From Azolla caroliniana (lineage: Eukaryota; Plantae; Polypodiophyta), in the NCBI GenBank assembly GCA_043228905.1, contig JBHGNT010000016.1:6386001-6450000 (forward strand): 64,000 bases of DNA, read 5' to 3'. The notes under the pieces are model-generated. The model had not been told where the DNA came from, did no database searches, and saw only the letters and a program-made list of their open reading frames with translations. Each line of letters opens with the position of its first letter. Positions within the stretch are counted from its first letter, which is position 1. Below are positions 15,826 through 41,500 of the stretch, piece after piece. The translations under genes were made by a program, and so were the position numbers.

Positions 15826-15849
15826 AAACGGCTCCTATTTTGGCTGGAC

Positions 15850-16992: not shown

Positions 16993-17063
16993 GGGATGAA
17001 AAGAAAAGAGGGATAAGAGATTAGTATGAAGGGAGAGAGACAGAAGGAGAAATTGGTTCAAAC

Positions 17064-17214: not shown

Positions 17215-17269
<55 letters not shown>

Positions 17270-17547
17270 GATAACATATTATATCTTATAAGAAGAGTAA
17301 GTACAAAAGGGCTATGAGGCTAAAGACTGGTGTTGAACATAATGCCTAGTGCCCTCTTTTATAGTGTTCTCAGGAGTAATCCTGAAGCTTCTAGAATGTT
17401 CTAGAGAAATCTGGAATATACATTAATTTCCTATAATAAAATGTAAATGAAAATAATATCTTACGTATTACAATAGATGATATAATGGTCAAGAGCTCGA
17501 CCCATATAACCTAAGGTCATGGGTTCGAGTCTTGCCATATCATGACA
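17064..17547 (-). repeat. 5' LTR of chromovirus A
   Basis: Copy of 11815-12280 with a longer GA run, a terminal TG>TA change on the plus strand and a 14-bp deletion at ~17338. Confidence 0.95.
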
Positions 17548-18981
17548 CACAAAAACTCTCGCCGAATTCCTTCTTTCCGTAGATACGCTGTAAACTCATC
17601 CGAGAAATATTCCTTGCCTCCATCCGATCGAAGACATCATACATGTCGGCCCGGCTTTCTCGACTTCATTCTTGAATTTTTGGAAGTGTCTGAACACTTC
17701 GCTCTTTTGCCGCATCGGGTAGATCCAAGTGTGCCTAGAGAAGTCGTCGATGAAGGTCACGTAGTATCGGCATCCGCCGAATGTCGCCGTCTGAGCCAGA
17801 CCCCATACATCAGAATGAATTACGTCGAGTACGCCTTTACTCACGTTCCGCTCCTTCGGAAATGGGTGCCGATGTTGCTTGCCGAATTGGCAAGCGGCAC
17901 ACACGCCTTCAATCTCTTTCTCCGTGAATGTCGGGAGCCTGATGACGACTCCTTTCGATTGCATTGCTTTAAGCTTTTGAAGGTTGATATGGCCAATCCG
18001 CTTGTGCCATAACTCTAGGTCAGACTCGGCTTTCGTGCCTTTTGCGAACATGGCCGATTTCATTTCGTGCGAGTCGAGAATGAACATTTGGCCCTCTCTT
18101 CGTCCGCGCGCGATGAGTCAGCCCTCTTTTTCGATGAAGCAACTGCCTTGATTAAATCGAACTTGCATTCCTTGCTCTACAATTTGGCCGAAGGAGACCA
18201 AATTCTTTGTGATAGTTGGTACATGCAAGACATTTTTAATGTAAGTTTGCATACCTTCTTCTCCGAACGGAACATTGCCGATGTGCCGAATCGGGTGCAT
18301 AGAGTCGTCTCCGGTTTCGACATAGCCAGGTCGGTCCGGCTCTCGAAGTTCTTAGAACCATTCTTGATGCGACGTCATATGGTTCAAGGCACCGGAATCG
18401 ACGAACCATACGTCTTCCGAACCGGAGGCATTAGTAGAAGTAGAGGCCGACATAGAATTCGCTCTATGTCTCATCACGAACATTCCGTCGCGATCGTCAT
18501 AGCCGGAGTTGATGGCGTAGTTGGTGAGTTGTCGGCTAGTGGAAGCCGACTCGCGTATCTCCAGTGTGGTTTAGAAAATCCACTAAGCCCACCCGACTCC
18601 GTGATTGTGTGTTCGAGATGCCGACGACAAAATCCGGCTATCAGCTACCATAGTGTCGCTACGTAGCACGTGTACGTGATCGAAGGAAAGTGAATGGCTT
18701 ATTGGTTAGGGTTATTCAATGTGTGTAGAAGGTGTAGAGTTTGATGCTCGCTTAGAGCGACTACATTAAAATATATTCCTTTTTCTTTACTTTTATATGG
18801 CGAAAGGGACATTTGCATTTAATGCAAATGAGGAGGCTCCTTTTCTATAAAAAGGGGGGAGGGCTTCTTTTGGGTCCTTCGTTCTTCGTTTTTGGGGTGG
18901 TCTTCCTTGACATTTTTGGGAGCTCGAGAGTGTTCATCTTCGTCTTCTTCAGTTTTCCTTTTTTCTTAAACTTTCCTTTGT

Positions 18982-20302: not shown

Positions 20303-20838
20303 ATGGAAGAATCGTTGGGAGGCATGTTCAAGCTCACCGGCTCCAACTATTCCGTGTGGAAGTCGAAGATGAGGGACATGCTCGTGGTTAAAGATCTTTG
20401 GTTGCCGGTTCAGTTCGGGGACAAGAGACCGAACAAAATCGACGCCACAATATGGGAGGTGATGCACATGAAGACAACGACGTACATACGGTGCTTCATC
20501 GACATGAGCCTATACAACAACTTCAATGAAGAGAGCAAGGCTCATGAGCTCTGGGAGAAGATCGACATTATGTTTCAGAACAAAAATATTGTTAACTAGG
20601 TTTCGGTATTCTGGAAGCTAGTAAGACTCCGGTACCAAGATGACTCCAGCATGGCGGAGCACATGAATGCCTTCCAGGGGCTGATACACCATGCAACATC
20701 ATTGGAAGTACCTCTTGCCGACGAGGTACTAGCGCTACTCCTGCTCGGTTCCCTCTCGGATAGCTGGGAGACGTTGGTTGTCACTTTGGACAATGCCGGG
20801 CCGGAAGGGAAACGGTTATCCCTAGCAAGAGTGAAGTC
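20303..20838 (+). pseudogene. Copia 2 gag, N-terminal part
   Basis: MEESLGGMFKLTGSNYSVWKSKMRDML...LLLLGSLSDSWETLV; one in-frame stop; cut by the Gypsy insertion. Confidence 0.88.
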
Positions 20839-21294
20839 TATTACCCGTTCCTTTGGGTGAACACCTTCGATAGATCTGCGTCTATCGGTCTTCAAGGGCG
20901 TGGTACGTGAAGGCTCGTAATAGAGGCGTCGAGAGAGATACAGGGCTTAGAGAGAAAACACTAGCGAGGTCTTGATAGACGTGGCGGCGTGAAATTCATA
21001 GGTATGGATCAAAGCACAGACTCATGCAGCAAAAATAGGCACAAATAAGATATATTACTATGGTAGAAAAGATTACAGAACACGGCCTATGGCTGGTGAC
21101 CTTACGAGTTTATCTAATCTCGAATGACTAAGCTAGTGCTTCCGCCTATAGTTTTCTTCTCTCCCCTTCTGAGGTACTGCTCCTCGTTTAAATAACCTTT
21201 CCCCTAATACACCGCCGAGCCGTCGGTGGCCCGTGATACTCGGACTGGACGTTTGCTAATTTCCTAATTTTACATTTCTGTCCCCTAGACAACA
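20839..21294 (-). repeat. 3' LTR of the non-chromovirus Gypsy
   Basis: Matches 36240-36695. Confidence 0.95.
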
Positions 21295-21393
21295 CCTGGC
21301 ACGCCTGTGGGACAGGACCTTGTCCGTTGGACCCACGACTTACAAAATACTAACAATATTACAAAAAATTGCATTTGAGGCGTGATCCTCGTT

Positions 21394-24300
21394 TCATTCC
21401 TCCTTTAAGATGTCGAGGATGCTTTCGGGGTCCGGGGTGGTGGCAGGGTGGTCTAGTTGGATTGTCGGTGCGGGGGGTGAAGTTTGGTCCGGGGGTGGCA
21501 TAACTTCTCAGACGTCCGCCTCAGGTGCAGCCGATTCTTCTGGTGGGGGTGTGGGTTCGTGGGCGTTGACCTCTACTTCGACAGGCTCTGGTACCGTATG
21601 GGCGTCCATGGAATGTATGTTGGCCGGGGCAAGTTCCTCCTGTGCCGTGTCCGTGATCTCCTTGCTGGGAGATTCTTCTTTCTGCTCTGTGGCCGTTGGA
21701 GGGCTGGTGGGGATGGCTGCGAGGCGTTCTCGTTCGAAGGCTTCGGCTTCCATGCGAAACAACATCTGACCGTCATTGAAGTCCTCCATTATTTGGTCGA
21801 TTGCCGCGGTGTGAGATTTTGCCAAGGACTAGTAATCCTCGGTTAAATCTGCACGCAGGTTTTGTATGCTGCCTTCGTCCATTTTGTAGAAGCCGCGGCC
21901 CTCCTTCCGTCGGTTCTCGGCGTCGGCGCGTAAAATATGCAATTCGGCAGCTTGGGCTGCCCATTCGTCTCCTGCGCGACTTAATGTTTCCTCGACCTTT
22001 TTGGTAAGGTGTTGGCGCTGTTTCTCGATCAATATTCTGATGCGTGTCTCATCCATGCCGGGCTGTGCTCGGATGGCTGCTAATTCCTGTTTTAAGCCGT
22101 CGACCTCGGCCTGAATCTTCTGTGTTCTGAGCTCATAGATGGCCTGAGTGTTCTTTGCATCCGCGGTTACGAGCTGGAGAGCCTGCTCATAACGCTTGGT
22201 GAGTTCTTCGGTGGCCTGCTCCCGTTCTTTCTTACACGTGGCCCGGATATGTTCCCGTTTGACGATTCTCTCTTCTTGTAGGGCGAAGTAGGAATCCGAT
22301 AAGGCGTCTTTTTGCTCCGAAAGTAGCTTGCATTTGATGAAAAACTCGTCAGCCATCTCTTTAAGGGTCGTACGTTGACTCGGCAGCTCGGCATTCTCCG
22401 CGTTCATCCTCTCCTCCCGTTGGCGATTTCTTTCCTCCTGCCGCTGGTTCCAGTCTTTTGCATTGTCGAGCGCGGCCTGTAGGTCTAGAACCTCCTTCTC
22501 TTTCTTCACCATTATGGCTGCGTATTCCTCCAGCTTGCTTTTGAGTTCGGCTTCCTTGCCCGCGGCTTGCGCTTGTACCCAGCCTAGTGCTTCGTTCTGC
22601 TCGTGTATCCTTTGGTCGGCTTGGGCTCTTATCTCGGCCATCTGCTTGGAAGCTTCTTCTTTTAGGCGAGCCATCGCCTCTTGATGTCGTTGTTCGTGTC
22701 TCTCAGTTCGCCGTTCTTCTTCTTTAAGCTCTGCACGCTAAACCCGGAGCGGGGGTTCTGTCTGGGTTGCCACCTCCTTGGGTGCACGAGGTGGTGGTAT
22801 CTCGGTCTTCTCCGTGGGCGTGGGCGCCTCGGTTGTTGTGCATGCATCGACCATTTGTAACGAGTCCGTTTGTGTACTGGCCTGCACCTTCAGGATTGAG
22901 TCGGTGATGGTGCTTGCATCCATCATTGTTATGCGTGGAGGCGCTGGGAGGGCCTCGGTGGTCGTTACCTAAAAGCTCGGGAGTTGTTGTTCCGGCCGGT
23001 TTTGCTCCCAGGCTGCCAGCTTCTGGTTCGCAGCGTGCCCTAGTTCTGTAGCCATCTTAGCCTATTTTTGGGCTATTTTTATCTTTCGGGCCATGTCTTT
23101 GGCTGCCCGCGTAGTGCGATCCAGGTCCCAATATGCCTCGATAAGGGCCGTGTTCAACTCGGGGACCTCCATGAGGAGAGCGGCCTGTTTTGCCTGCTTC
23201 TTCCTCCCGATTTTTTGTAAAGCCTTGTCCTCTTGGGGCTCAATTTCACCTATTAGCGCGCGTTGAATCATTTTTGTTTCGGCGTGCTCTTCCGCCATTC
23301 GAGCGGCTGTCGCGACTTGGGCTCTGGCGAGGAAGTCGACCAGCTCGAATGACGTACCGAGGCGTAGGAGCGCACTAAATTCATAAGGCTCTGCGGGGAG
23401 GTTCTTATACCCGAGGACTTCATCCTTCGAGATCTGTTTTGTCTGCCCATGCTCGATCGTTCCCTGGTTCAGCGATGCCTCCGCAGGGGTGATGGCCAGG
23501 TTGCTCTGTCTGACCACTAAGGCTTGCTCCTGTTGTGGCTCCTTCTGTTCTTCCGATGACTCGCGGTTGAGTCGTCTTCTCTTGCTTGGCTGTGTTTGGG
23601 GTTCCGGGGCCGGTAGTGTCGTTTCCTCCGCCTACTTCCTTTTTTGGGGTCGTGGTGGTGCAGCCTGCTGTGTGTTGGGGCGTGGGCTAGGTCCTGGGGA
23701 CGTTACCGAGGGGCGCGACGTTGGCTATCGAATGGTGACGTTATCGGCCGTGTTGTCTTCCACGGCTACCTCCTCCTCCCATTCTTGGCAGGTCTCGGAA
23801 ACTACCCTTTTTTGTTGGGGTTGGGCGGGTGGTGGTGCAGATGCGGTTTTTTGGTCGGCGGTAGGGGGTGAAGGCGATGTGGGATCCTCCCATGCTTCGT
23901 GGCTGATGGCCACGAATTTCTCTCTCTGCCTTCGTCGTGGTGGTGGGGACGTGAGTGTGCGAGGGGAAGGAAGCGAAGAGGGTGGGTATAGAACCATCAA
24001 AAAGTGGCTAAGAACAGACAACATCTTCTTACCAGACTGAAATGAAGCGAAGGCGGCGCAGAGTCCTTCGCCTGTGATGATTCCCCAATTGATTCTGTTT
24101 CCTTCATACGCGCTGATGATGATGGCTGCCTTGTTCTGCGGCATGCTCGTTGGGTTCGTATGCATGAACACATACTCCATTAATATACGAGCAATCTCCC
24201 CGAAAGCTTTGTTGGGACCGCCATATGTGCGATATGCCTTCCCTGAGGCTGAGTACTCACCGAAGTACGCCTTCATCTTTGATGCCGGGGGTATGTCGAC

Positions 24301-24558
24301 CTCATGGTCCCCCCCCCGTTGCAGGTCCAAAACAGCCCGAAGCATGTTGTTGGTGATGGCTTCAGGACTTATACGTTTAGCCACAGTTTGGGCATCTGGG
24401 TGCGGGGGGGCATCGATGATCTTCAGGTAACTGCCCATTCCTCGTTCTTGGAGCCAGGCGCGGGTTTCTGTTGAGGCGGTAAGAGGCATGGTGGAGATGG
24501 AGGCGGGGTTCGACTGTGTGGAAGCGTGAAGCAAAGTGATGAGGCGAGGGCGAGCCAT
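21394..24558 (-). pseudogene. Gypsy accessory ORF3 (~1050 codons; N-terminal globular domain, Pro-rich linker, coiled coil), broken by in-frame stops
   Basis: ORF fragments 23725-24558, 23062-23517, 22738-22926, 21829-22674 and 21508-21825 all share one frame and are separated by TAG/TGA codons; the frame ends ...DILKEE* at 21394. Confidence 0.8.
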
Positions 24559-25020
24559 AGGAGGAACAGTAGGAAGGGGAAGTCCAGCAGAGAGGTTATG
24601 AGAGCGAAAGAGGGCTTGAGAGCAAGAGCGCTTAGCGTGATGAGAGCGAGACGAGGTTTCTGATCTTGAGAGCGATGGAGATGGGGAGCGATAATGGTCT
24701 GTGTTGCGTTTTGGAAACGGTTTTAGTAACTTATTCCTAGGGTTTTGTGCCTGAAGCGAATCCTAAAGATTATGAGTCGTGGGTGCCATAATAAGTGACT
24801 AGCACCACGTGTCCTGAAGGTGAGTGGGGTACTTCTAGTGCTTTGCATGTGGTTTGCATGTGTGAACAACTTAAATAGGTACTAACTGAGTGGTGGCGAG
24901 GGGTGCTCCTAAAATTGTGGGTGCCTAGGTGGGTGGTGTAGGTGTAGCTAATCAGTGGCTAAACTATGGTTAATCCTACCTACTACTACTTTTATTAATT
25001 TCAAGAAGGTGGGTGAGTCC

Positions 25021-27995
25021 TTATTCAGGGGGACACATGGCGTCCTCCGTGGTGATCTCCCGAGTCTCGTTTGTGCCGTGTGGCTCAGTAAACGGATTGG
25101 GTGGTGTAGTCCCTCGATATGGTCGAAGTCGAAAACCATTGGCCCAGCTTTTGACTGTGTCACCGGCGAGTGTGCCGAGCTGGAACGTCCCGTTGAACTC
25201 GTCGATAATCCAGAATGGACCGGTCCACCGAAATCTTAATTTTCCCGGCATTGACCCGAGTCGTGTTTGGAAAAGAAGAACTGGTTTGCCGATGGTGAGC
25301 TCCTTCTCCAGCCCATGTCGATGTCGATCCACGAAATCCTTGCGTTGCCGTTTGCGTTGTTCGAGTTGGGTCATACTCTCTATCCTATCTTCCCCGAGTT
25401 CGAGGAGTTTTTCCAGCTGGTATTGCTCGGATTCGGCCTCGGGGAGCCATGCTTTGACTTGAACTCGGAGGCTCAGGATCTGGAACTCGACTAGCATTAC
25501 GGCTTCTAACCCGAACGCCATTCGAAAGGGGCTCGATTGGATGCTTGTTTTGAAAGTCGTACGATACGCCCACAACGCGCTCTGGAGTTTGTCATCCCAA
25601 TCGGTCCTGTTTTCATTGACGATCTTCTTCAGTATGGTTTGGAGGATTTTATTGGTCGATTCTGCCAAGTCGTTCGCCTGCGGGTAGTATGGTGTGCTTT
25701 TCTTGTGCACCACCGTGTAGTGGTGTGTAAGCTCACGTACTATGTGATTGATGAAGTGCCCACCTTGGTCACTAACAAGCTCGATTGGACATCCGTAACG
25801 GCACCAAAGGTGCTCGTACACAAATTTAGCCGTGGATGCCGTTGTGTTATCTCGGAGTGCCTTAGCCTCGACCCATTTGGTGCAGTAATCCGTGGCAACG
25901 ATAATATACCTATTCCCTGTTCGGGCCGTGGGTGGTTTGAAAGGGCCTACAAAATCCAAACCCCATTTTTGAAATGGGTCCAACGGAAGAATCGGTTGGT
26001 GTGGCATCCGTGACTGTTCCATTGGTTGCCCCAGACGTTGACACAAATCTCATTGCTGACAAAACTCGTGAGCTTCTTTCTTCATTGTCGGCCACCATAA
26101 TCCACTTTGCCAAACTTTCCTTGCCGTGGAATCCCGGCGTAGTGTCCCCCAGCTACTCCCTGGTGGGCTTCCTGAAGAACGACGTTCTTCTCGAATTGCC
26201 GAATCGCTCGGCGCCATATCCCGTCCGAGCCTTTGTGGTAGAGAATGTCCGAGACGAGGCAAAAATTCCGGCTACGCACTGCTAGGCGTTTTCTCGTGTC
26301 ATGTGCTCGGGAGGTACACTGGTATTGAGAAAATGGGTCATCTCCGTGATCCATTCATCTCCGTTATCGTCTGGTACCGTGGTCAGGTTAAATAGGTTGG
26401 CGTCCGGTAGCTCGTCGTACGTTGTTTTCTCCAATTCTCCTGACTCAAGACGGCTCAAGTAGTTGGCGACAGCATGTTGTACCCCGGGTCGATGCTGAAT
26501 CTGAAAATCAAACACTTGTAGTAGGAGCATCCACCGAGCCAACCGTCCGGTGAGGGCTTGTTTATTGACCAAATAAAGAAAGGCTGAGTGATCCACGTGA
26601 AAGGTAAATTTTCGGCCCAAGAGGTAATGCCGAAATTTATTGATGCTATAAATCATACCGAGGGCCTCCCGCTCGTTGGTGGAGTAATTCTTTTCCGCGG
26701 TCGAGAGCCGTCGGCTGGCGTAGTACACAGGCCTATACCAATTCGGGGGTGTGCATTGCATCAGGGCACTTCCGATGACGATGTCCGAAGCATCTACGAA
26801 GACATGAAACGGTTCGGACCAAACCGGAGACTGGACCATCGGGGCATGTGACAGCATTCGTTTCAAGGTCTGATAGGCCGTGTCCTCGACTGACGTCCAT
26901 TGGAAAGGAAGGCGATGGACTGCCGCGTGCAAGGGTGTCACGAAATCGGCCAGGTGTCGTATCATTCGGCTGTGCCACCGGATCTGTCCCAAAAAACGGC
27001 TTAGTGCCTTATCGTTCGAGGGTGCGGTGGCATTCAGGATTGCCTTTACTTTATCTGGGTCCATAACGATGCCTTCTTGACTGACAATGTGGCCGAGAAG
27101 GTTGCCGCTGGTGACTAAGAACGTGCATTTCGCCGGGTTTAAACTCAATCAAGCTTGGCGACATCGGTCCAGGCAGAGTCGTAACTGGGTCATGTGTTCC
27201 CGTCGATGGCCATACACGTCGAAATCGTCGAGAAAGACTTGCATGAACGTCGGGATGTAGTCATGAAAGATTTCGGTGATGATGCGCTGGAACGTAGCCG
27301 GCGCCGTTTTTAGACCGAACATCATAACTTCTGCTACAAAAACACCCCATTCCGTGATGAAAGCGGTTTTCTCCTGATCCTCCGGGTGCATTCTTATCTA
27401 GTTATAACCGCTGAACCCGTTGAGGAAACTGTAGCATTCGTGGCCAGCTACCGTGTCGAGGACGCTATCCGTGAATGGGAGAGGGAAACCGTCGGTGACT
27501 GTTGCCGCGTTAAGCTTCCGATAGTCGATGTAGACGCGGATTTTTCCGTTCTTCTTTGGGACCACTACGATCGGGCTCAACTATGTAGCCCGTTTAATAG
27601 GGCGAATGAAGCCCACTCAGAGTAGTTTGTCAATTTCCTCTTTGACTTTAGCGGCGTAGTTGGGGTTCATCCTGTAGCACCTTTGCTGAACCGGCCGAGT
27701 GTCGGGTAAAATGTGAATTTGATGTTGGTAGTATTGAGGATCTAGCCCCTTCATATCGGTGTAAGACCAAGCGAAAACATCCTGGTACTCGGTGAGTAAT
27801 TTTACGCGGCATGCCCGTTCGCCGGTTGGTAGATTATTGGCAATTTGTACCGTACAGGGATTCTCGTCCGAACCGAGGTTTATTGTTTCCAGGGTTGATG
27901 CTTTCACTCGTTGTGAAATGGCGAGTTCGCGTTTGAAAGCCTCCCGAGCATGACGTAGCTCGGCAACTGTGGTTGCATCTGGTTCATCCTGGGGT
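25021..27995 (-). pseudogene. Non-chromovirus Gypsy pol (RT-RH-IN), disrupted
   Basis: SPIVVVPKKNGKIRV..DYRKLN, FGLKTAPATFQR, FLDDF, VFVDAS, NYSTNERE, PFQKWGLDFVGPF, YYPQAN, WTGPF. Confidence 0.92.
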
Positions 27996-28121
27996 TGTCA
28001 GGAACTCTATTAAGGCAGAGAAGGAATTAGTACTAAAAGAAGGATTAGTACTATTGTTGGGGAATAGTACTAAGACAGAGAAGGATTAGTACTATGAGAG
28101 GTGTCGAACTTTGAGAGAAGG

Positions 28122-28164
<43 letters not shown>

Positions 28165-28454
28165 TGATGCGAAAGATATATGTATTATATGAAGGAAGAT
28201 ATACAACAGTAGTTAGAAGGCTTAAGACTGGCGTTGAACCGATTTGGTTCGAACTAATGCCTTGCGCCTCCTTTTATAGTGTCTTCAGGAATACTCCTGA
28301 AGTTTCTAGAATGTTCCAGAGAAATCTGGAATATACATCAATTTCCCAATAAAACCTAAATGAAAATAATATCCTTCAAATTACAATTCATAACCTAATG
28401 GTAAAGTCTCGACCCGTGTAACAAAAGGTTATGGGTTCGAGTCTAGTTATGACA
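27996..28454 (-). repeat. 3' LTR of chromovirus B
   Basis: tgtcagg...ttatgaca, adjacent to PPT AAAGGGGGGATAG. Confidence 0.96.
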
Positions 28455-31400
28455 CTATCCCCCCTTTAAAACGACGAGTTCCACGAGTCGTTTTGGATTG
28501 AGGACCCGGTTTCTCGGGATATCGTCGATGGAAGTCTTCTAGAAGAGCACGAGCATTGGTCACATTCTCGATCGGTTCCCAAGTACGCTCGCTGGGACTA
28601 TATCCTAGCCAATCGACTAGATAGTAGAGCTTGTTGCGAACAATCTTGGAATCGAGGATGGCAGCGACCTCATACTCAGGTCCATCTTCGAGCTCGATAG
28701 GAGGTGGTGGTTGTATAGTACGTCCTGGGATAGTGCTCTCGTGATAGGGTTCGAGGAGAGAACTATGAAACACCGGATGTATCCGAAGTTGCGGAGGTAG
28801 CTCGAGACGAAAAGCGACATCATTAATCTTCCCGATAATACGGAAAGGACCTAATCGCCGATAATCCAACTTCTCACATGGGCGAGTAGTCTTGATGTGT
28901 CGTCGTAGCAGCCACACCCGATCTCCAATGTTAAAACTGGATGGAAGTCGATGACGATCTGCGTAGTCCTTGTGTGATTGTTGAGCTTGCTGGAGTTGAG
29001 TAGATAAATCCGCTTGTATCTTGCGTAACCGCTCCAAACGATCCTCCGCGCAAGGATTTGTGGACACTTCTGGGGTTTCAAGGACACACCACCGGGGATG
29101 ATATCCCGTATAAGCGTAGAATGGCGTGACTTTAGTCGATGCGTGGATAGCGTTATTATAGGCAAATTCGGCGAACTGAAGAATATCTGCCCAGTCATTC
29201 TGATGATAGTTGAGAAAGCACCGCAGATACTGCTCCAGTGTTTGATTTGTTCGTTCGGCTTGACCGTCGGTTTGTGGGTGGTAGCCGGAGGAGAGGTTAC
29301 AAGTGACCTTCAGCATTTTAAAAAGGTGCTTCCAGAATTTTGACACAAACTGGGGTCCACGATCGCTGATGATATTATCAGGGAGTCCATGATGCCGACA
29401 TACTTCCCGCATGACAATTTCGGCGGTGTCTTCACTAGATATTTCTTTAGTACAAGGTAAGAAATGAGCCATCTTCGTATATCGATCCACCACTGTGAGA
29501 ATCGCACTGAATCCCTTAGAGACTGGAATATCTGTAATGAAGTCAAGAGCAATGGATTGCCATGGCTTGCTTGGAATTGGTAATGGTTCTAATAAACCAT
29601 ATGGATGATGTCTTGGCATTTTCGCTCTGCAGCATGTATCGCAAGTCCGAACAAAATCTTCGACAAATTGTCGCATACGGGGCCACCAGAATGATCGTTG
29701 TACTAAATCTAATGTTTTAGTACTACCAAAATGTCCTGCTGTATATGTGTCATGGCAATTTTGTACTACTCGAAGGCGGCAAGAACCATTAGGAACATAC
29801 AAAAGTTCTTTAAAGAAGAGTAATCCATCACAGTATTTGAATTGCCGATAATCCGTACCTGGTGATTGTGATTGTGAACATGACGCTCGAGAGGGGTCAA
29901 TTTGTGCTAGTATAGCTTGGGCGAAAGCGTCAGTCTTCAAGTCCTCACGTATAGTATTGGTAATGTCGGAATCCACGGGCATGTCAAAGACTTGTGCTGC
30001 TTGCAGTCGTGCTGGACCCAAGATTACTTGCTTCTGGTTATCGAAAGCTGGCTCACCGGGACGTGGTGTTAGATACGAACGCCGTGATAATGCATCTGCC
30101 TTCCCTTGGTGCTTCCCCGGACGATATGTAATTTTGAAGTCGAAGCGTGTGAGGAAGTGGGCCCACCGAGCTTGACGTCGATTCAGTACACGAGCATCTT
30201 GAAAGTAGGCAAGGTTCTTGTGGTCACTGAATACAGTGACCTGATGAGGAGATCCCTCCAGGAAATGCCTCCATTGCATAAAAGAATCAACTATTGCTAA
30301 TAGCTCTTTATCATGAATTTCGTAGTTGATTTCGGCGGCGTCAAACTTACGGGAGTGGAAAGCCACAGGATGTAGCTTCTCGTCGTTACCCTGTTGTGAC
30401 AGAATGCTCCCCAATGCGAAATCCGATGCGTCAGCTTCGATAATGAATGGTTTTTCCGGATCCACATGACCTAAAATTGGAGCTGATGTAAACGCCTTCT
30501 TAAGACTCTCGAAAGCCATGTCCGTCTCTTTAGACCAAATGAATGATTGTCCCTTCCTGGTGAGCTGTGTGAGAGGCAGCACAATTTTTGAGTAATTTTG
30601 TATGAACTTCCAGTAAAAATTTGCAAAGCCTAGGAAGCATTGCACATCCCGCACCGAACGCGGAGTGTGCCATTCTATCACCGTTTTGACCTTGGCTGGG
30701 TCCATAGATATGCCTTCTGAGGAGATGACATAGCCGAGAAATTCCACTTGGTTGCACCCGAAACTACATTTCTCTAACTTTGCATACAGACCATGTTCTC
30801 GAAGTCGTTTTAGTACTAATAGTACATGAGAATCATGTTCTTCTTGGGTCTTTGAATAAACCAGTAGATCATCCAAATAGATGATCAAAAAATCATCCAA
30901 GAGATCTCGAAATATATCATTCGCCATGTGCTGGAAGACTGCTGGCGCATTAGTGAGTCCGAACGGCATGACCGTATACTCGAAGTGCCCATATCTGGTG
31001 CGAAACGCGGTCTTCCATTCATCTCCTGGTCGGATCCGTACGAGGTTATAGGCTCCTCGTAAGTCGATCTTCGTGAAGAACCTGGCACCGTTGATCCGTT
31101 CTAAAAGACTTGAGATAAGGGGAAGAGCATACCTATTTCTTACTGTGACCTTATTCAAGCCACGATAATCTACAACGAGTCGAAGCGAGCCATCTTTTTT
31201 CTTGACGAAGAAAATGGGTGCGCTGGCTGGAGATTTCGAATGCCGAATGAAACCGTTCTCCAAATTCTCCTCTATATAGGCTCGAAGGACTTCTAGCTCG
31301 GTTGGTGACAAATTGTAGATCGGCCCCCATGGCGGCTCTTTTCCCGGTTGTAAGTCGATGGCGCAATCGTACGGCCGATGATGAGGAAGTGTGTTGGCTT

Positions 31401-32036
31401 GTACTTTATCGAACACATCAGCATACTGACGATACTTCTCGGGAAGTTGAACGGTGGACTCCTCTTTGGTGGTGCTGGAGGGTTGTACTGATATTGCGAA
31501 GAGAAACATTTCCTCCTTGCGCCCTTCCTCACGCAACTGACGTAGCGAAATGGTTGCAACCTTCTGGGTAGATCCTTGGGTTTGTCGCAACCAGATTTCC
31601 CTTGTCCTCCAATCTATGTCTGGGTTATGTAACTCGAACCATGGTAATCCTAAAACTATGGGATGTTCTGGAATACTAATAATATTAAATGATACTACAC
31701 ATGTTAAGTTATCTAGGACAATATTAACGGGTTCCGACTCTTCTATGATATTACCAGAAGCAATGGGACGACCATCAATGACTACTACTGAGGCTGGACA
31801 TGGGAGCTTTCTGAGAGATATCTGATGAGCTCGGGCAAAATTCCTATCCATGAAGCAAGAATTAGCTCCGGAATCTAGAAGGGCTAAGGTATGTACTGGA
31901 GGGGTACTTTTAGTACTAACTGCTACTTGGGCTACGAACACATCACTAACTTGCTTAGAGGGAATGGAACCACTAATGGGCTGCACAGATCTAGGGCTGT
32001 CCAACCAAACGGCTCCTATTTTGGCTGGACTTAGTC
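28447..32036 (-). CDS. Chromovirus B pol polyprotein (PR-RT-RNase H-IN-chromodomain), intact, -1 frame relative to gag
   Basis: ALLDSGA, IIYLDDLL, EADAS, HxxxxxxH..CxxC, DFIT/SDRG/GQAE, GPF, and chromodomain EYEVAAILDSK..YYLVDWLGY..TWEP. Confidence 0.96.
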
Positions 32037-32043
32037 GTTTAAC
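31999..32043 (-). promoter_or_regulatory. -1 programmed ribosomal frameshift signal (G_TTA_AAC plus stem-loop)
   Basis: Heptamer at 32043-32037, 6-nt spacer, 11-bp stem GTCCAGCCAAA/TTTGGTTGGAC; a -1 shift enters the pol frame; identical in element A at 15818-15862. Confidence 0.8.
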
Positions 32044-33200
32044 TCTTCTTCTAATTGGCTAAGGACATCAAATTTGTTTGCGAGATTCGGACTATTAGTA
32101 CTATTAGGACTATTATGACTATGAGGACTATCAGAGATTCCTACTGAAATAGACTCGGGTTTAGTATAGTCAGAACTAACAACGACTTGGTTTACCTGCC
32201 TTCTTGGTCTATGGGGACAGTTTATCGCGATATGCCCTGGTCCACCGCAATAAAAGCATAATCGGTTTGTTCGGCGTCGTTGCTTTTCCTCCTCCGATAG
32301 CGGCCCACGACGACGTGTAGTGTCAATTTCCATTGGAGTTGGAGTACTTACTGGAGGCGCATTATGTGACTCCCTTTGAAAAGGTTTTGCTACCACTGAG
32401 GCATAGGTAGGCTCGGATCTTGCCCTCGGCATCTGAAATTGTCGTTCTGAACGTCGCTCGAAGAGGCGGTTGTCACATCTGACCGCTCGACTGATTGCTT
32501 CTGTTAATGATTTTGGCTCTTCAGGGAAAGTCAAGAGTAAATCCTTGACATCGTTGCGTAGACCATAGCGGAACTGCTCCATCAATGCTTGATCATCCCA
32601 GGGGATATCGGCGGCGAGTAGGCGGAAATCTGCAGCATATGCGGAGGCTGGACGGTCACCTTGGCGTAATCGCCGGATTTTGTTGATTGCAGTCCTTATG
32701 CTGTCAGTATCTCCAAAACATGCTTTAAACTCACTTATGAATTCTTCAAAATTATTTAGTACTGGAGATTCCTTTTCTAGTAGCGGAGCGAACCATGCTA
32801 ATGCTGAGCCATTTAACAACGTGCCTACTAAACCCACTCGTGATGCATCGGTGGGATATCGGGACGGATGCATTTGAATAACTAACCGTACCTGGTTAAG
32901 AAACCCTCTAAACTGCGATCGCGTTCCATCGAACTTCGTGGGAAGGCCAATCTTGGGTTCTTTATGAATCCCTTGTGCTCCGTGCCCTTGTTGTTGCATT
33001 GCTACGATGGTTGCTTCGAGTTGTTGCACGCGTAACGCAAGTTCCCCATGCTGTTGTTGCGTTTGCTGCTTTTCTAAGGAAATTTGCTGAAGATCCCCCA
33101 ACAAGCGTTGATTTTCTTGTTCCAAAGCATGAAACTTCTCTTTCAAGCATTGAAATTCCGAGAAAACGGATTGATACTCTTCAGCGCTAACGGTGGCCAT
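32031..33200 (-). CDS. Chromovirus B gag
   Basis: 389-aa ORF: N-terminal coiled coil, PTKFDG, LRQG, PMEID, CFYCGGPGHIAINC. Confidence 0.95.
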   Translation of the reverse strand: MATVSAEEYQSVFSEFQCLKEKFHALEQENQRLLGDLQQISLEKQQTQQQHGELALRVQQLEATIVAMQQQGHGAQGIHKEPKIGLPTKFDGTRSQFRGFLNQVRLVIQMHPSRYPTDASRVGLVGTLLNGSALAWFAPLLEKESPVLNNFEEFISEFKACFGDTDSIRTAINKIRRLRQGDRPASAYAADFRLLAADIPWDDQALMEQFRYGLRNDVKDLLLTFPEEPKSLTEAISRAVRCDNRLFERRSERQFQMPRARSEPTYASVVAKPFQRESHNAPPVSTPTPMEIDTTRRRGPLSEEEKQRRRTNRLCFYCGGPGHIAINCPHRPRRQVNQVVVSSDYTKPESISVGISDSPHSHNSPNSTNSPNLANKFDVLSQLEEELND

Positions 33201-33283
33201 GGGATGAAGGAAAAGGGAAATAAGAGACTAGTAGGAAAGGAGGGAGGCAGAAGGAAGAGGGAGAGAAAAGACCAGACAGGCAC

Positions 33284-33298
33284 ACCAAATCGGTTCAA
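33284..33298 (-). promoter_or_regulatory. Self-priming PBS of chromovirus B (complementary to LTR 33535-33549)
   Basis: Sense PBS TTGAACCGATTTGGT is the exact complement of ACCAAATCGGTTCAA, which begins 30 nt downstream of TATAAAAG; no TGG tRNA-type PBS is present. Confidence 0.85.
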
Positions 33299-33300
33299 AC

Positions 33301-33426
33301 TGTCAGGAACTCTATTAAGGCAGAGAAGGAATTAGTACTAAAAGAAGGATTAGTACTATTGTTGGGGAATAGTACTAAGACAGAGAAGGATTAGTACTAT
33401 GAGAGGTGTCGAACTTTGAGAGAAGG

Positions 33427-33465
<39 letters not shown>

Positions 33466-33755
33466 TGATGCGAAAGATATATGTATTATATGAAGGAAGA
33501 TATACAACAGTAGTTAGAAGGCTTAAGACTGGCGTTGAACCGATTTGGTTCGAACTAATGCCTTGCGCCTCCTTTTATAGTGTCTTCAGGAATACTCCTG
33601 AAGTTTCTAGAATGTTCCAGAGAAATCTGGAATATACATCAATTTCCCAATAAAACCTAAATGAAAATAATATCCTTCAAATTACAATTCATAACCTAAT
33701 GGTAAAGTCTCGACCCGTGTAACAAAAGGTTATGGGTTCGAGTCTAGTTATGACA
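33301..33755 (-). repeat. 5' LTR of chromovirus B
   Basis: Matches 27996-28454. Confidence 0.96.
33572..33632 (-). promoter_or_regulatory. LTR promoter: TATA box plus extended heat-shock element (also at 28271-28331)
   Basis: TATAAAAG at 33579-33572; TTCagGAAtaCTCctGAAgtTTCtaGAAtgTTCcaGAGaaATCtgGAA at 33585-33632. Confidence 0.8.
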
Positions 33756-33760
33756 GGGGT

Positions 33761-36048
33761 GGTGACTCCTCCGTGACTTCCTCGTCTTTGGATGGCTCGA
33801 TGGTTGGTAAGGCATTGATTTCGAAGAGAGAGATGATCGTGGGATGATCCTCTAGGAAGTCATCGACCTCCTCATCGGCCAACCCGTCGAGCATATGGAC
33901 CCCTTCCGCGTATAACAGCGAAGTGTTGAGGGCGATGGGGACTCGTTCTTCAGTGATGATTCGGACTTTTGTCTTTCCTCTTCGGAACGAGATTATGTTG
34001 TGTTGCCAATGTTGCTTGATATTCGTTGTACGTAACCATGGTCGACCTAGTAACATTGGGTAGGCGCCTTGTGTCTCCAGTCGTAGTACAACGGCCGAGA
34101 TCGTGAACATGTGGCCTCCGAGTGTGAAGTCGAGATGGCGGATTAAACCAATGGGGCGAACGGAGCGGGTGTCGGCCATCCGAAGCCAAACGGGGCATGG
34201 TTCCCATTGATTCAAGCCTAGGTTGAGACACGTTGACTCACTAATAACGTTTACGCCGGATCCGTCGTCGATGATGAAGCCGTGCAGGTCTTGTCCCTTA
34301 ATGATGATTCGCACGGCTGGGTTCTGAGAATCCATGAGTGGTGGACCGGTTCCTGCTTCGGTGAGGTGTACCGGTGGTGTCACGGCCTTAGTATTGGCCT
34401 GGAGTGCCGCCAGGGTGTCCCGAAATCTCGGCATGAGTGGTAGCAGTTTATGTAGGGGCAGCGAGATGCGGGAGTTGGTAAGAACATCCCATAGCTGGTC
34501 GTCCTCCGACGACGTGGATGGTGCCGGGGTTTGTGGTACTTCACTGGGCCCGTCCCTCATGTCAGTTTGCATGCGTACGACATTATTTTTATTGGTCGTG
34601 TCGACCCATTCTTTTGCTGCCTATCGTACGTCATCCTGGATTTGCCACTGAGTAGTCTGCACTTTACTCCGGGTAGTGACTGTTTGAACATCGACCATGA
34701 TACTGTTCACCGCAGGTGCCTTGCCACGGTTGGTTGTCGGACATTGCGTGGCGTAGTGGCCTGGTTGATTACATTTTAAACATGTCACGTTGGCCGAGCT
34801 GCTGGTGTCCGCTCGGTCTGTGTGTGGAAGCTATTGTTGTTGATTCTCAGCCTCGTTTGGTGGTGGGTTGTTCCGAGGTGCGTTAGAGTTGCGCTGGTCA
34901 TGTTGAGGAGCGTCCCGTCGGCGGTTGTGATTAGGTCTTCTATTGTTGCGTGTGTTGCGGTTGCCGTTTCGCCGATCCATGCGTGAGTTCCTTCGGTCAT
35001 ACCGATCATCGCAATCGTCATCGTATCGAGCATAATCGTCGTGTCGGTCATCGCGATAATAATCACGGCGATTATCACGTTGGTAGTCGTCGTTTCGGCG
35101 CCATCGATCCGGGGATCTCGGTTGGTCGTTATCCTAGTCTCGGTAGATATATCGCTCGTCCTGTCGAGAGTATGTATTTCGTGGCTCGATCTGGCGGACC
35201 GGTGCCGCCGTTGTGCGGTTCAGCATATTATATTCGCACTGCTCGATCGTGTGAGCTCGAGACTGACAGATCGGACACTGTGGTCGGTGGGGACATTCGA
35301 GGGCCAGGTGCCCTGATCCTGAACACGTAGTGCATTGGAGGGCTTGGCGAAAGCGATTGTCCTCTTGGGGAAGAGCGTTTTGCAAGGATGTCATCGAGAA
35401 AGCCGTGTCGTGCTGGTTCCGATCGAGGGTGAGAACGCGCGCTATGACTTGTTCGATAGTATGGTTGGCGAAATTTGTAAGTGCGAGAGTCGTTCGTAGA
35501 GGCTCTCTTAAACTGGATAGGAAAGTGTCCGGTATATGTTGTGCCGAGACATCATCGGCCACTTGTCTGTAGAGATCCTGGAACCGGATCGTGAACTGCG
35601 CGACCGTTTCGTGCAGTTCCTGGCATATAGAGAAGAATTGCCGGAACAGTTCCCGTTTAGGCACCTCGCGATGAAAAAGTTCAAGGAACTTTGTGCGCAC
35701 GATTTGGAAAGTGGTGGCCTCTCCTATTTCGAGGCGAGAGTACCATCGTGCGGCCGGTCCATCGAGGGAGAGTGTGAACTCGGCAATCTTCGAGGCATCG
35801 ATTTCGGCCGGCGTGAGGCGGTGCGTGGAGTGGTTAGCCTGCCACGTGGATATGAAGGCACGGACGTGTGACTCCGCATCTAGTTCGTCGGTATATCGTG
35901 GGTATGGGTACGGCATGATGTCGTATTGTGGGTCTTCTGGTAGCACCGGAAAAGGGTTTAGTTCCGGTTGATTGACCTCCGAAGGGCTCGACGGGGGTTC
36001 TTGTGGTGAATCAACTCGCGATCGAGTGTCCGGTGGCGAGGATTGCAC
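33761..36048 (-). pseudogene. Non-chromovirus Gypsy gag and protease, disrupted
   Basis: LSLDGPAARWY capsid-like region; CCHC knuckles CTTCSGSGHLALEC, CPICQSRAHTIEQC and CLKCNQPGHYATQC; protease IIDDGSGVNVI...MLLGRPWL. Confidence 0.88.
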
Positions 36049-36221
36049 TGGACAAGCCCCCGATTGATCGGGAAAGGATTGGTCAGTGACCGCCGAGTCG
36101 GAAGTTCCTTCGATTGGCTCAGGGCGTCGGGCGGGTGGCCGAGACCTCGTGGTGCGAGAGGGCGCCGTAACGGCGGCTGGTGGTTACCTTCAACGAAGTT
36201 CGCTGTGCACTCACAGCTGTA

Positions 36222-36234
36222 ACCGGGCGTGCCA
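36222..36234 (-). promoter_or_regulatory. Primer binding site, tRNA-Arg-like
   Basis: TGGCACGCCCGGT 5 nt inside the 5' LTR; resembles the complement of the plant tRNA-Arg(UCU) 3' end (from memory). Confidence 0.7.
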
Positions 36235-36239
36235 AATTG

Positions 36240-36695
36240 TGTTACCCGTTCCTTTGGGTGAACACCTTCGATAGATCTGCGTCTATCGGTCTTCAAGGGC
36301 GTGGTACGTGAAGGCTCGTAATAGAGGCATTGAGAGAGATACAGGGCTCAGAGAGAAAACACTAGCGAGGTCTTGATAGACGTGGCGGCGTGAAACTCAT
36401 AGGTATGGATCAAAGCACAGACTCATGCAGCAAAAATAGGCACAAATAAGATATATTACTATGGCAGAAAAGATTACAGAACACGACCTATGGCCGGTGA
36501 CCTTACGAGTTTATCTAATCTCGAATGACTAAGCTAGTGCTTCCGCCTATAGTTTTCTTCTCTCCCCTTCTGAGGTACTGCTCCTCGTTTAAATAACCTT
36601 TCCCCTAATACACCGTCGAGCCGTCAGTGGCCCGTGATACTCGGACTCGGCGTTTGCTAATTTCCTAATTTTACATTTCTGTCCCCTGGACAACA
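36240..36695 (-). repeat. 5' LTR of the non-chromovirus Gypsy
   Basis: tgttaccc...gacaaca; matches 20839-21294; TATTTAAA on the minus strand. Confidence 0.95.
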
Positions 36696-36700
36696 AAGTC

Positions 36701-37805: not shown

Positions 37806-38485
37806 TGTTGTGAAGATTTTCGTCCATAGGCGGAAAACCGAGCGAAGTAAGCAAACCCGCGATGTGCAACGTTGCACATCAAGATGTTGTATTTCTATTT
37901 GTCGATAGTGATAAGTGTGGTGCTAGAAATGCACCTTAGGATTTGTAAAGTGTAAAGGTGATGTGCTTTTCGCGCACATCCACGTGAGAGAGAGAGATAG
38001 GTACATAGTAGTTCGTGTAGAGGTGGGAGTTAAGACCCATCCTTCCCTCCTCCCCTAAAATCAAGGGAAATATCCCCATTGATTGAAAGGGGATATTTTG
38101 TAGCACCCTTTTTGAAAACGGTCTTCTCTCCTTGTGCTATAAAAGGAGAGGAAGAGCACCATTGTGGGGGTTGCCTTATTTTGGAGTGTGAGTGAGGTAT
38201 ACCATTTCGTCTAGGGTTCCTTAGTTAGGGTTTCTTTTCTTCTTCGTCGGATTAGGGTTTCGGGTTTATCATAGTCGTTCGGTGCGGCCTACGTGGCCGC
38301 CATTTTGTAATCGGTTTTTGGTTCTAATATATCTTGTTGAGCATTTGGCCTCCATCTTCCTCTTGTTCATTCTTTCTCTTCTTGTGCTAAGCTCCATTCC
38401 GAAGTCCTATCCCTTCTCCCCTTCTCCTTAGTCCAAGACCCCCGTGGTTCCGCCCTTCTCCACGCACGCGCGTAACAACGCGACA
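37806..38485 (+). repeat. 5' LTR of the gag-only element
   Basis: tgttgtgaag...acgcgaca; TATAAAAG at ~38138. Confidence 0.95.
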
Positions 38486-38489
38486 TCTT

Positions 38490-38507
38490 TGGTGAACCCG
38501 ACGTGAA
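38490..38507 (+). promoter_or_regulatory. Primer binding site, tRNA-Trp
   Basis: TGGTGAACCCGACGTGAA, the 18-nt complement of the plant cytosolic tRNA-Trp 3' end TTCACGTCGGGTTCACCA (from memory). Confidence 0.85.
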
Positions 38508-38527
38508 GGGCGGCAAGGGAGAAAGAG

Positions 38528-41500
38528 ATGGAAGAAGGCTTCGACTTCGAGGAGATGATGACAAAGATCTTGATGGACGCCGGACGGAAGAGGGCGAGGC
38601 GAGAGGCGGCTCAACAAGCGGTCGAAAGGGTGGTCCGTCTAGTCGGCCGGTTCGATGGGAAGGAGGTCCCAAAATTTTTGAGAGCCTACGATGCGGAAAT
38701 GACGAGGATGGGCGTGGACGAAGCGACGAGGCTAGAGTTCTTTCGTCGAGCGGCGGCCGCATCAAAGCACGAGGAGGTCAAGGAGCTCCAAGAAGCTCAC
38801 GAATCGTGGGAGTCCTTTGAAGGGGCTCTAATGGAGGCATACGGGTGCGCGGAATCGGAGGTAAGAGGTCAGCGAGAGTTCGATCGGTGGGTGGCGTCGG
38901 CGAGGCGCCATCGGAGCGCAATGGAGGCATTCCGAGAGTTCGAGCGTCGTTTCTCTCAACTCTCGGAGTGGGAACGAAGATCGGTGGGGGCGGACAAAGT
39001 CCTCCTATTTTTGGAGACGGTCCATCATGAGGAGAGGATGGACATCATGTTCGAGCTTCAAGACGATTATGGGGCGCATGGTCTCACCGAGGAGTGGCCC
39101 GAAGTGGAATGGGTGTGTCGGCAACATGAGGCGAGGCGGTCGGCCACAACACGGCCCGCGAGCGGGGGAGAAGAGAGAGCGACAACCGACTACGCCATGC
39201 CGCCGGACGAGAGCTCATCGCGAACCGGTTTGGAGGGGCCCGACCTACAAGCGCTAATACGGGAGGCGTGCGGGCTCGTAATGGCGAAAATCGAAGCCGA
39301 AGAATGGCTTATGGCGGGGTCGGGCCCGAGCGGATCGGAGGACGCGGAGGAAGGAGCTTCCTCACACATGGAGGACGGGGCCTATGCGGAGGCCGAAAGA
39401 GAATGGTACATCGGTACCACGGGAGAGGGTGCGGAGCGAGCCGCCCTCTCAACATGGGGGAAAAGAACGACCGAGGACGAGGTCGGGGACGGTGAGGCGG
39501 CGATCGCCGATTCGAGCGGACATGGCGGATTCGGGACACGGTGGCCCGAATCATCGAGTACGGAGGAGACAAGCAGAGGTACCGCAACCTTCCACGCACC
39601 GGTTCGAGAGACCACGGCGGCCGGCCCGAGCGCCCGCGAGAGACCGAGGGAGAAGAACGGTGGCGGCGGCAAGGAGGGCAACCGAGACAACGGTAAGGAG
39701 ACCGCGGAAGAGGCGGCGGCAAGCATAACCGATGCTTGCATATACGGAGGCGGGGTAGCCACGGACAACGACGTCCGAGCGGAGGTGGCTACGGACATTA
39801 CATCGACGAGCGGCGGTCCCGCGACCTTACACGCGTCATTCCTAGAGATCACGGCGGCCGGCCCGAGTGCCCGCGTAAGACCTATGGTGAAAGGCGGTGG
39901 CGGTGGCAAGGCGGGCGACCACGGCGTCAACACGAGAGAAGGTGCGGAGCAAGCGACCGTCTCATCTCGGGGAAAAAGAACGGCCATGGACGAGGCCGAT
40001 ATCTACGGAGCGATGGACGCCACTTCGAGAGTGGGCGGAAGTTTCGGGACGCGGTTGCCCGAAACGTTCTACGAGGATTTCGCGAGCATACTCGAGGCTT
40101 GCGAAATGGAGGAGGAAGACGAAACGAGCGATGGTGTCGCGACCTTCCACACACCGGCCCTAGGGGCTTCGGCGGTCGGCCCGAGTGCCGGCACGAGACC
40201 TAGAGCTACGGACGGTGGCGGCGGCAAGGCGGACAACCCAGATGAGGACGAGACCGGCGAAGAAGAGGCGGCGGCAAGCATACTCAATGCTTGCGAAACC
40301 GAAGACGGGGTAGCCACGGACGACGATGTCCGAATGGAGGTGGCTACGGACGAGAGGAGTGGTGGTGTCGCGACCTTCCACACACCGGTCCTAGAAACTC
40401 CGGCACCCGGCCCGAGAGCCGGCGAGAGGCCTAGAGTGACGGACGGTGGCGGCGGCAAGGCGGGCAACCGAAACGACGACGACATGGGAGAGGGTGCGGA
40501 GCGAGCAACCCTCTCGTCTTGCGGCGAATGGACGGCCAAGGATGAGGCCGGTGACTACAAAGCGGAGAGCGCCACTTCGAAAGTGGGCGGAAGATTCGGG
40601 GCACGGCGGCCCAAAACATCGAGCGGAGAGGAGGCGAGCGGTGGTGCCGCGACCTTCCACACACCGGCCCTAGAGGCTTCGGCGGTCGGCCCGAGTGCCG
40701 GCACGAGACCTAGAACGACGGGCGGTGGCGGTGGCAAGGCGGGCAAACAAAATGACGCGGAGAACGGCGAAGAAGAGGTGGTGGCAAGCATACTAGAGGC
40801 TTACGGAATCGAAGATGGGGGAGCTGCGGACAACGACGTCCGAACGAAAGCGGCTACGGAGACAACAAGCGGCGGTGCCGGGTCCTTACCCACACCAATC
40901 CTAGAGGCTCCAATGGCCAGCCCGAGTGCCGGCATGAGGCTTAGTGCGACGGGAGGTGACGGCGGCAAGGCGGGCAACGGAAACGAGAAGGAAGATTGGA
41001 GCGGACGGAGGCAAGACCCCTTGACACCGGGGCCGGAGACTTCGGCGGTTGTGCTCGAATGCCAACGTGAGACCGGAGAGATGGGCGGTGACCATGAGGA
41101 GGTGAGGCCCGGAGAGAGCGGATACGAAGACGAGTATGCGGGGCCCGGAATGGGCGTATACGGTGGGTCCGACGGAGAGGACCGGAGCGGAAACGAGGAG
41201 AGAGTCGGGAACCGACCCGACCGGAATACGGCACGGAAGAAAAAGAGAGTAAGGGCCGGCGAATCGGGCCCAAACCGAAGGAAGCCGGCGAGACCGATTG
41301 GCCGGTTACGGTTACGGTTACGGTTACGATGGGAGCCGGAAAGCGCGAGATGGAGGTTAACCGGGCACGACGACCATGGTTCGGGGGAAAAACGGAAACA
41401 AACGAGACCCTCCATACCCACTCTAGAGACTACGGCGGTTGCGGATCAACATGAGACCGGAGAAACGGCGGGTGGCGGCGAGGAGTCGGAGGCCGGAGCG

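Follow-up and report, generated by a model that had tools for sequence, protein, structure and literature searches.

How does a long terminal repeat (LTR) retrotransposon start the second strand of its DNA when no polypurine tract (PPT) lies before its 3' LTR? The question is raised by an LTR element, a non-chromovirus of the Ty3/gypsy type, at positions 20839-36695 of a 64,000-nt stretch of the Azolla caroliniana genome (contig JBHGNT010000016.1, positions 6,386,001 to 6,450,000). This whole stretch is called the window, coordinates count from its first letter, and the sense of the element is the minus strand. To our knowledge, PPT priming of the second strand has been treated as near-universal in the replication of LTR retrotransposons and retroviruses. 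From the comparison of sequences, we suggest with good confidence that the clade to which the element belongs primes both cDNA strands with host tRNA, an antisense tRNA site taking the place of the PPT. We further consider it probable, with rather more reserve, that this is a recently active clade which has dropped the PPT and in which full-length tRNA-Arg(UCU), bound to minus-strand DNA, primes the plus strand through a bipartite site that a hairpin interrupts; some of its families use two different tRNAs, one per strand.

The order of the coding regions is of the gypsy type (gag, protease, reverse transcriptase (RT), RNase H (RH), integrase), with the gag, protease, RNase H and integrase domains all on the minus strand. 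The coordinates, the minus-strand gag-pol, the matching LTRs and the AAGTC target-site duplication (TSD) reported in a first-pass annotation of the window all hold in the LTR comparison and the domain matches. Its treatment of 21295-36239 as one gypsy element agrees with the LTRs and the TSD, except that a nested chromovirus (27996-33755, TSD GGGGT) takes up about 5.8 kb of it. The gypsy element is thus itself inserted in a copia-like element and split by a chromodomain element. The chromodomain found in the span is confined to the nested element, the gypsy integrase being without one, and no Pfam match to an archaeal RNase H (aRH) was obtained in the open reading frames (ORFs) of the window or in the nearest homologs (P0004-P0006).

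In the sense direction, the 5' LTR is followed by CAATT and then TGGCACGCCCGGT (36234-36222), which is the primer-binding site (PBS) of the minus strand. On the plus strand, the other LTR is followed by CC and then TGGCACGCCTGTGGGAC (21297-21313), a stretch whose plus-strand letters are the same as those of the minus-strand cDNA. No PPT precedes the 3' LTR, and an inverted tRNA-like site lies 2 nt from the LTR instead, as the first-pass annotation had noticed. Purine runs of at least 13 nt are confined to the LTR itself and to positions about 1.1 kb or more upstream of it, and none adjoins the 3' LTR. A central or displaced PPT was not observed either, there being no such run near the 3' LTR in four elements. 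The two controls within the window, a tRNA-Trp element (CCGT TSD) and the nested chromovirus, each have a PPT. The motif TGGCACGCC is present once on each strand of the window; the inverted 9-mer said to be shared by the two sites is therefore real in this copy, although in most family copies, from which the window copy departs at one CpG, the shared stretch is 11 nt.

Both sites correspond to a host tRNA. A pattern search for the T-arm and acceptor gave 21 matches, of which 20 were fetched, and ten of these are tRNA-Arg(TCT) genes according to ARAGORN. With CCA added, the 3' end of these genes agrees with 13 nt of the 5' PBS and, allowing one bulge, with the 3' site at 17 of 18 nt, which bears out the first-pass identification of the 17-mer as the 3' end of plant tRNA-Arg(UCU) minus one base. 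The further claim that the match stops at the 18-nt boundary is right for the part next to the LTR (part A) and wrong for the site as a whole, since a further 10 nt are complementary beyond a 13-nt insert that holds a hairpin. The 3' site therefore consists of 17 nt against tRNA positions 76-59, the insert, and 10 nt against positions 58-49 (part B). In several families the 5' PBS is followed by a small hairpin and a GAAC, and T-loop pairing at this PBS was not consistent in co-folding. Clustered variants of the tRNA-Arg(TCT) genes (L070-L073 and L078) have badly paired acceptor stems (CCAGGCGTG ends) and are perhaps pseudogenes; their variant base also occurs in three partial tRNA copies beside LTRs, one on the U3 side (L145) and two on the U5 side (L075 and L079).

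Part B was scored on 18 representatives of LTR clusters. It is matched at 8 of 10 positions in the window copy and at 9 of 10 in most family copies; at least eight matches were found in 11 representatives (mean 8.1, against 4.5 for shuffled sequences), and the four rows scoring seven have a one-base insertion. The 4-bp stem of the insert occurs in three forms (GGAC/GTCC, GTAC/GTAC and GTGC/GCAC), with 67 of 68 cells paired, a value that none of 500 shuffles attained and to which slid controls came no nearer than 60%, and with double changes in two of the four pairs. Co-folding predicts 27 pairs of the tRNA with the site and leaves the hairpin as a loop, the L002 site giving -56.5 for tRNA-Arg(UCU) against -38.5 for tRNA-Arg(UCG).

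A one-off chimera, an inversion or an assembly artefact has next to no probability as the source of this arrangement and is refuted by its occurrence at many loci on many chromosomes, with TSDs in paired copies (5 bp: AAGTC, TACAA, CCGAA) and LTR pairs up to 100% identical. A query made from the junction gave 790 candidates, 40 of which were scored and 30 fetched, the window copy among them, and the site lies 2 nt from the LTR in all 30. When the query was instead an internal stretch 600 bp away that does not contain the site, 28 of 30 copies were found to have it with 0-3 differences, and the other two end before the junction owing to insertion or rearrangement. The first-pass annotation had proposed a check for an ordinary PPT in sister copies, and the copies lack one. 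Contigs from four DNA runs also cover the stretch, and among the pieces listed none spans the junction by 31 nt on both sides; the sequencing runs listed as containing it include no RNA run.

The site is not limited to the LTR family of the window. The 17-mer following ACA-NN has 1310 exact matches in the genome (G000), distributed over many LTR families, as compared with none for the reversed control. Sixteen such loci were fetched; pol matches were found at 12 of them, every one of which has the site antisense to the integrase and downstream of it. In a sample chosen by RT alone (35 of 150 RT matches fetched, long frames preferred), each of the 20 elements with a clear LTR pair, most of them from one family, has the site at the 3' LTR, and three more have it at an LTR start; no PPT was seen in any of the 35, 12 of which are without a located 3' end. 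Some copies of the clade have identical LTRs together with uninterrupted frames, which indicates that the clade moved recently, and the acidic residues of RNase H are present in all seven uninterrupted clade ORFs read. Two elements of 2-3 kb without pol (L292, 7226-9901, and L295, 6207-8420) retain both tRNA sites. In a family copy at L378 (907-937), an inversion has brought the gag-protease region up against the 3' region at a point just interior to the tRNA site.

We also considered the reverse orientation, in which the 17-mer is the true PBS and gag-pol is antisense, and rejected it. The 5' PBS, present in all 30 junction-query copies, is the site that has been rewritten, reaching 18 nt in two of them as expected where a primer tRNA is copied. 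In addition, a TATA-like box lies on the gag-pol strand, and none of the ten full 18-mer matches in the genome is an internal 3' site with hairpin. The contrast between 1310 17-mers and no internal 18-mer with the hairpin is in line with a 3' site that is inherited through RNA and not rewritten by tRNA.

Besides tRNA priming of both strands, the first-pass annotation had suggested that the two RNA ends pair with each other. Pairing of the 3' site with the 5' PBS in an RNA circle or dimer, with no primer role, draws on the window family, where the sites are complementary over 11 nt and the predicted duplex has -25.1 kcal/mol. In the sister families, on the other hand, the 3' site is unchanged in all six elements for which both ends were read, and their 5' PBS begins TGGCGACCAC, a type that in most of them agrees with host tRNA-Arg(TCG) for 13 nt; the predicted duplex falls to -8.9 kcal/mol. 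This second tRNA was found with a wider pattern, a first and narrower one having matched nothing. The constancy of the 3' site while the sister PBS differs ties it to tRNA-Arg(UCU) and not to the PBS; moreover, the tRNA match extends 16 nt past the part shared with the PBS, and pairing of the ends would leave the plus strand without a primer. End pairing as the role of the site is therefore largely refuted and extremely unlikely, a minor role being possible in families with one tRNA at both ends.

When RT copies a primer tRNA, an established stop lies at m1A58, after 18 nt. A tRNA used for the plus strand is expected to leave a relic outside the U3 end of a 5' LTR, consisting of tRNA sequence with its CCA and the base that is absent from the internal site, followed by the spacer of the family. 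The full 18-mer at a 2-nt spacer gave the ten matches mentioned above, seven of which flank an LTR on its outer, U3 side; they represent four independent events in sister families. These relics are copies of mature tRNA-Arg(UCU), 18-57 nt long, with CCA and at the family's own spacer. The first (L138, with local duplicates L137 and L139) has about 57 nt of tRNA, followed by spacer, LTR, a TGGCGACC PBS and gag; the second (L140/L292) has 56 nt and occurs on a small pol-less element whose internal site has the same TA spacer; the third (L145/L293) has 18 nt, followed by the LTR, a TGGCGACC PBS and gag-pol. Since the 5' PBS is of the TGGCGACC type in L138, L140 and L145, the relic there is not the minus-strand primer. 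In the fourth (L143/L144, locus L263), the U5 end, its spacer and one T are followed by exactly 18 nt of tRNA, AG and U3, and this junction occurs twice in tandem within an insertion flanked by an AATAG TSD. The internal site of L263 reads GGCCCACGTGCGTGCCA and differs from the relic at several positions, so that its 18-mer was not derived from there. The relic length of 18 nt fits the RT stop at m1A58.

The three remaining 18-mer matches (L141, L142 and L146) are on the U5 side and were not counted as relics of the plus strand, and the same applies to L068; the U5 assignment is shown by L295 for L141 and is taken from the LTR end for L142. The other ten of the 20 fetched loci of the T-arm and acceptor search are partial tRNA copies and not genes, each ending in CCA beside an LTR end. 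Seven U5-side extended copies came from this search, which makes the relics of both kinds similar in number. Two further candidates, which are themselves altered internal sites, were dropped, as was a third with a 12-nt match and another spacer. An LTR with an extended tRNA copy also stands beside a tandem array of units of about 560 bp (L120, 473-5950).

A scan for LTR-LTR junctions gave five matches (control: two), namely L263 twice, L364, L365 and one chance flank. L364 has the complement of tRNA-Arg(TCG) at U5 and a bare spacer at U3, L365 has TGG at U5 and CCA with the spacer at U3, and the junction of L077 likewise terminates at a bare spacer. These three junctions indicate that plus-strand DNA starts at the spacer directly after CCA. 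Two or three tandem 5' LTRs joined in the manner of cDNA ends were observed in L263 (564-1998), L077 (1029-2043) and L364 (1069-1985), and the clean TSD around L263 implies that such tandem-LTR forms can integrate.

The relics also bear on two readings that differ from ours in the nature of the usual primer. The idea of a genome-encoded mimic of the tRNA end as primer, also raised in the first-pass annotation, is still conceivable but does not explain them, because they carry the sequence of the tRNA and not of the element. The reading in which the usual primer is the element's own RNA, a 17-nt tRNA-like stretch surviving RNase H, and tRNA primes occasionally by virtue of the match, we regard as unlikely. 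The RNA strand does share its sequence with the end of the tRNA, the likeness terminating at CCA 2 nt short of U3, its GTGGG...CCCAC is foldable on the RNA too, and the clean junctions in L077, L364 and L365 fit both primers equally. Nevertheless, nothing is known that would make an RNA of mixed sequence resistant to RNase H, and this reading gives no reason for a 27-nt identity to one host tRNA across families with RT about 78-80% identical. Furthermore, all four long U3 relics are of the tRNA type even where the internal site differs, and the internal 17-mer was found in none of the five junction-scan matches, no dedicated search having been made in every family. The relics could alternatively arise if RT, while making the minus strand, switched template from the tRNA-like RNA to a packaged tRNA and recombination came afterwards, with something else as the normal plus-strand primer. 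The 17-nt identity would favour such a switch, and rearrangement or duplication affects three of the four relic loci, yet we judge it very improbable: it would leave the tRNA 3' end annealed at the site, ready to prime, no other primer candidate adjoins U3, and the L263 junction looks like a joint between two complete cDNA ends, has exactly 18 nt of tRNA and lies in an insertion with an AATAG TSD.

Priming of both strands by tRNA is thus supported by the U3-end relics together with the bipartite complementarity. We propose that the minus strand would be primed by tRNA-Arg, UCU in the window family and UCG in the sister families. After RNase H had cleared the RNA, tRNA-Arg(UCU) would anneal to the minus DNA through its 3' 18 nt and the T-arm, with the hairpin looped out at m1A58, and RT would extend the CCA end across the 2-nt spacer into U3. 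Normally RNase H would cut off the primer at the boundary of CCA and spacer and integrase would trim 2 nt, the dinucleotide CC at 21295-21296 likely being the one trimmed. Where removal failed, the minus strand would copy the tRNA up to m1A58 or beyond and leave a relic.

Several observations weigh against this proposal. The relics are few (four events), none was found in the window's own LTR family, and they record failed reactions, which makes tRNA a possible primer but not necessarily the invariable one. The hairpin covariation amounts to three stem types in related families and hence to few events, and the duplex and co-fold energies use RNA parameters for an RNA/DNA hybrid. Substitutions (8 distinct changes against 2, tallied in 16 correctly registered rows without L292 and L295) tilt towards pairs that would be wobble pairs on the minus strand, a bias that is not significant given base content. 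Finally, nearly all of the evidence comes from one genome, the site being found elsewhere only on a metagenome contig (L147). The metagenome scan gave 79 loci, mostly distant or short; L147 was the one positive among the 45 screened for ends, a 3' LTR was absent from all intermediate relatives (47-65% identity), and there were no closer complete relatives in that scan. A pattern scan of viral_contigs for the site gave no matches.

The RT-RH homologs comprise relatives at 60-80% identity, followed by Riccia, Marchantia and Adiantum proteins (44-54%) and seed-plant elements (39-46%). Two quick trees, which have Shimodaira-Hasegawa-like approximate likelihood ratio test (SH-aLRT) values and no bootstrap and carry lineage labels that we inferred without REXdb references, place the families in one clade (SH-aLRT 99-100) inside a larger group that includes elements from seed-free plants (92-96), apart from a clade with Asp/Asn PBS (99) and from the aRH-bearing Tat elements. 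The clade shares with canonical Ty3/gypsy elements (Metaviridae) the LTRs, the 5-bp TSD, the domain order, a tRNA PBS after the 5' LTR and a plus-strand start 2 nt before U3, and it differs in having an antisense bipartite tRNA site and U3-end relics of tRNA where those have a PPT. A PPT before the 3' LTR is typical of Ty3/gypsy and does not define the taxon.

By the features tested, the clade is not Phygy, Selgy, Athila or Tat, from which it is set apart by characters tabulated in PMC6317226; this comparison covers passages and supplement 5 of that paper, and its supplements 1 and 3 may list such elements. Athila (OTA non-chromoviruses) is similar in its 5-bp TSD, the lack of aRH, the length of about 10 kb and an extra ORF after pol, and differs in a tRNA-Asp/Asn PBS as opposed to tRNA-Arg and in what appears as a separate branch in the quick trees. 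The clade whose Asp/Asn PBS and seed-plant hosts lead us to call it Athila-like is 41-47% identical to the window clade in RT-RH, and a purine tract terminates both L161 and L222, elements with an Asp or Asn PBS. Phygy and Selgy, from moss and lycophyte, are likewise non-chromoviruses without aRH (PMC6317226), and the nearest named relatives of the window clade are from liverworts and ferns. As described there, Phygy has a tRNA-Trp PBS and a 4-bp NCGN TSD, in contrast to tRNA-Arg and 5 bp here, and Selgy has a tRNA-Ala PBS, a 4-bp TSD and a length of about 5 kb. Trp-PBS elements of the same genome, taken as a proxy for Phygy, are 23-26% identical to the window family in RT-RH and have a PPT where the 3' junction was read. 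A tRNA-Arg PBS is common in Tat/Ogre/Retand (PMC6317226), unlike which the window clade lacks aRH, and its RT-RH is 35-40% identical to theirs; an element with an Arg PBS (L191) has a purine tract.

The three primer types distinguished in the compared parts of PMC6317226 all concern the PBS, with the PPT placed upstream of the 3' LTR. Primer choice can vary, as seen in the self-priming of Tf1/Tcn1 (same source) and in HIV 3'-PPT mutants (in the portion of PMC11680205 used here). None of these systems uses tRNA for the plus strand. Hepadnaviruses, which use a capped RNA primer, are not known to use tRNA for it either. In the bipartite PBS of Ty1 and Ty3 and the primer activation signal of HIV-1, the template pairs with both the T-arm and the acceptor end of the tRNA. 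That extended pairing takes place on RNA and serves minus-strand priming, while here it would be on minus DNA at the start of the plus strand.

The first-pass annotation knew of no such arrangement, and a narrow phrase search of the open literature, with Repbase and subscription journals outside its scope, likewise found neither a second, inverted PBS nor a tRNA-primed plus strand described. The element is thus of a known kind with a replication step that matches no known system in the literature searched. If the proposal is true, more than 1000 copies of the clade were made without a PPT and the PPT step is replaceable, gypsy RT can initiate on DNA with a structured tRNA as primer, and one replication cycle can need two tRNAs. 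Such elements would provide a natural system for studying primer choice and primer removal by RT, RNase H and Gag, and 3' tRNA fragments are predicted to have a second target in them. LTR annotation tools can assign these elements the reverse orientation, since the strand with the better PBS is the wrong one.

Table 1. Coordinates of the features of the gypsy element in the window
Feature	Position	Strand	Basis or remark
Left TSD, AAGTC	20834..20838	.	Direct repeat
3' LTR, 456 bp, U3 end at 21294	20839..21294	-	LTR comparison, 13 mismatches to 5' LTR
2-nt spacer CC, LTR to tRNA site	21295..21296	+	Spacer family-specific: CC, CA, CT, TA
Predicted plus-strand primer site, part A, 17 nt	21297..21313	+	Complementary to tRNA-Arg(UCU) 76-59, one tRNA base bulged
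13-nt insert, hairpin of 4 bp with 3-nt loop	21314..21326	+	At tRNA 58/59 boundary
Part B, 10 nt	21327..21336	+	Complementary to T-loop and 5' T-stem strand (tRNA 58-49)
Extra ORF region in sense, following pol; fragmented in window copy	21829..24762	-	No Pfam family
Integrase core	25021..26049	-	rve, E 2.5e-12
RT C-terminal part and RNase H	26282..27148	-	RT_RNaseH, E 1.6e-31
Nested chromovirus with own PPT, interrupts pol	27996..33755	-	Chromodomain; putatively Tcn1-like
Protease region	33748..34620	-	Asp_protease_2, E 6.7e-4, below curated cut-off
gag	35134..36183	-	Retrotrans_gag, E 3.2e-9
Minus-strand PBS, 13 nt	36222..36234	-	Complementary to tRNA-Arg(UCU)
5-nt spacer CAATT	36235..36239	-	Between 5' LTR and PBS
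5' LTR	36240..36695	-	456 bp; TATA-like TATTTAAA at 36595-36588
Right TSD, AAGTC	36696..36700	.	Direct repeat

The extra ORF region has counterparts in L125 and other sister families, where a second sense ORF of about 1000 aa without a Pfam family follows pol. ESM Atlas gave weak leads for it (at most 0.90) to plant transposon proteins and to Athila ORF1 proteins.

Other elements were found around the gypsy element in the window. The one at 37806-43478 has 680-bp LTRs (99.7% identical), a tRNA-Trp PBS, a CCGT TSD, a PPT and a long ORF (38507-42787), and it fits the features of Phygy in the compared parts of PMC6317226; the Trp PBS pattern has 5660 matches in the genome, some of them overlapping. 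The nested chromovirus and a second chromodomain-type element at about 11817-17548 are related and 87% identical, and the nested one has a PPT and no tRNA-like PBS, as is the case for the self-priming Tcn1. The copia-like host element extends over about 19624-47064 with a PBS of the tRNA-Met type at 20275, and it took up both the gypsy and the Trp elements.

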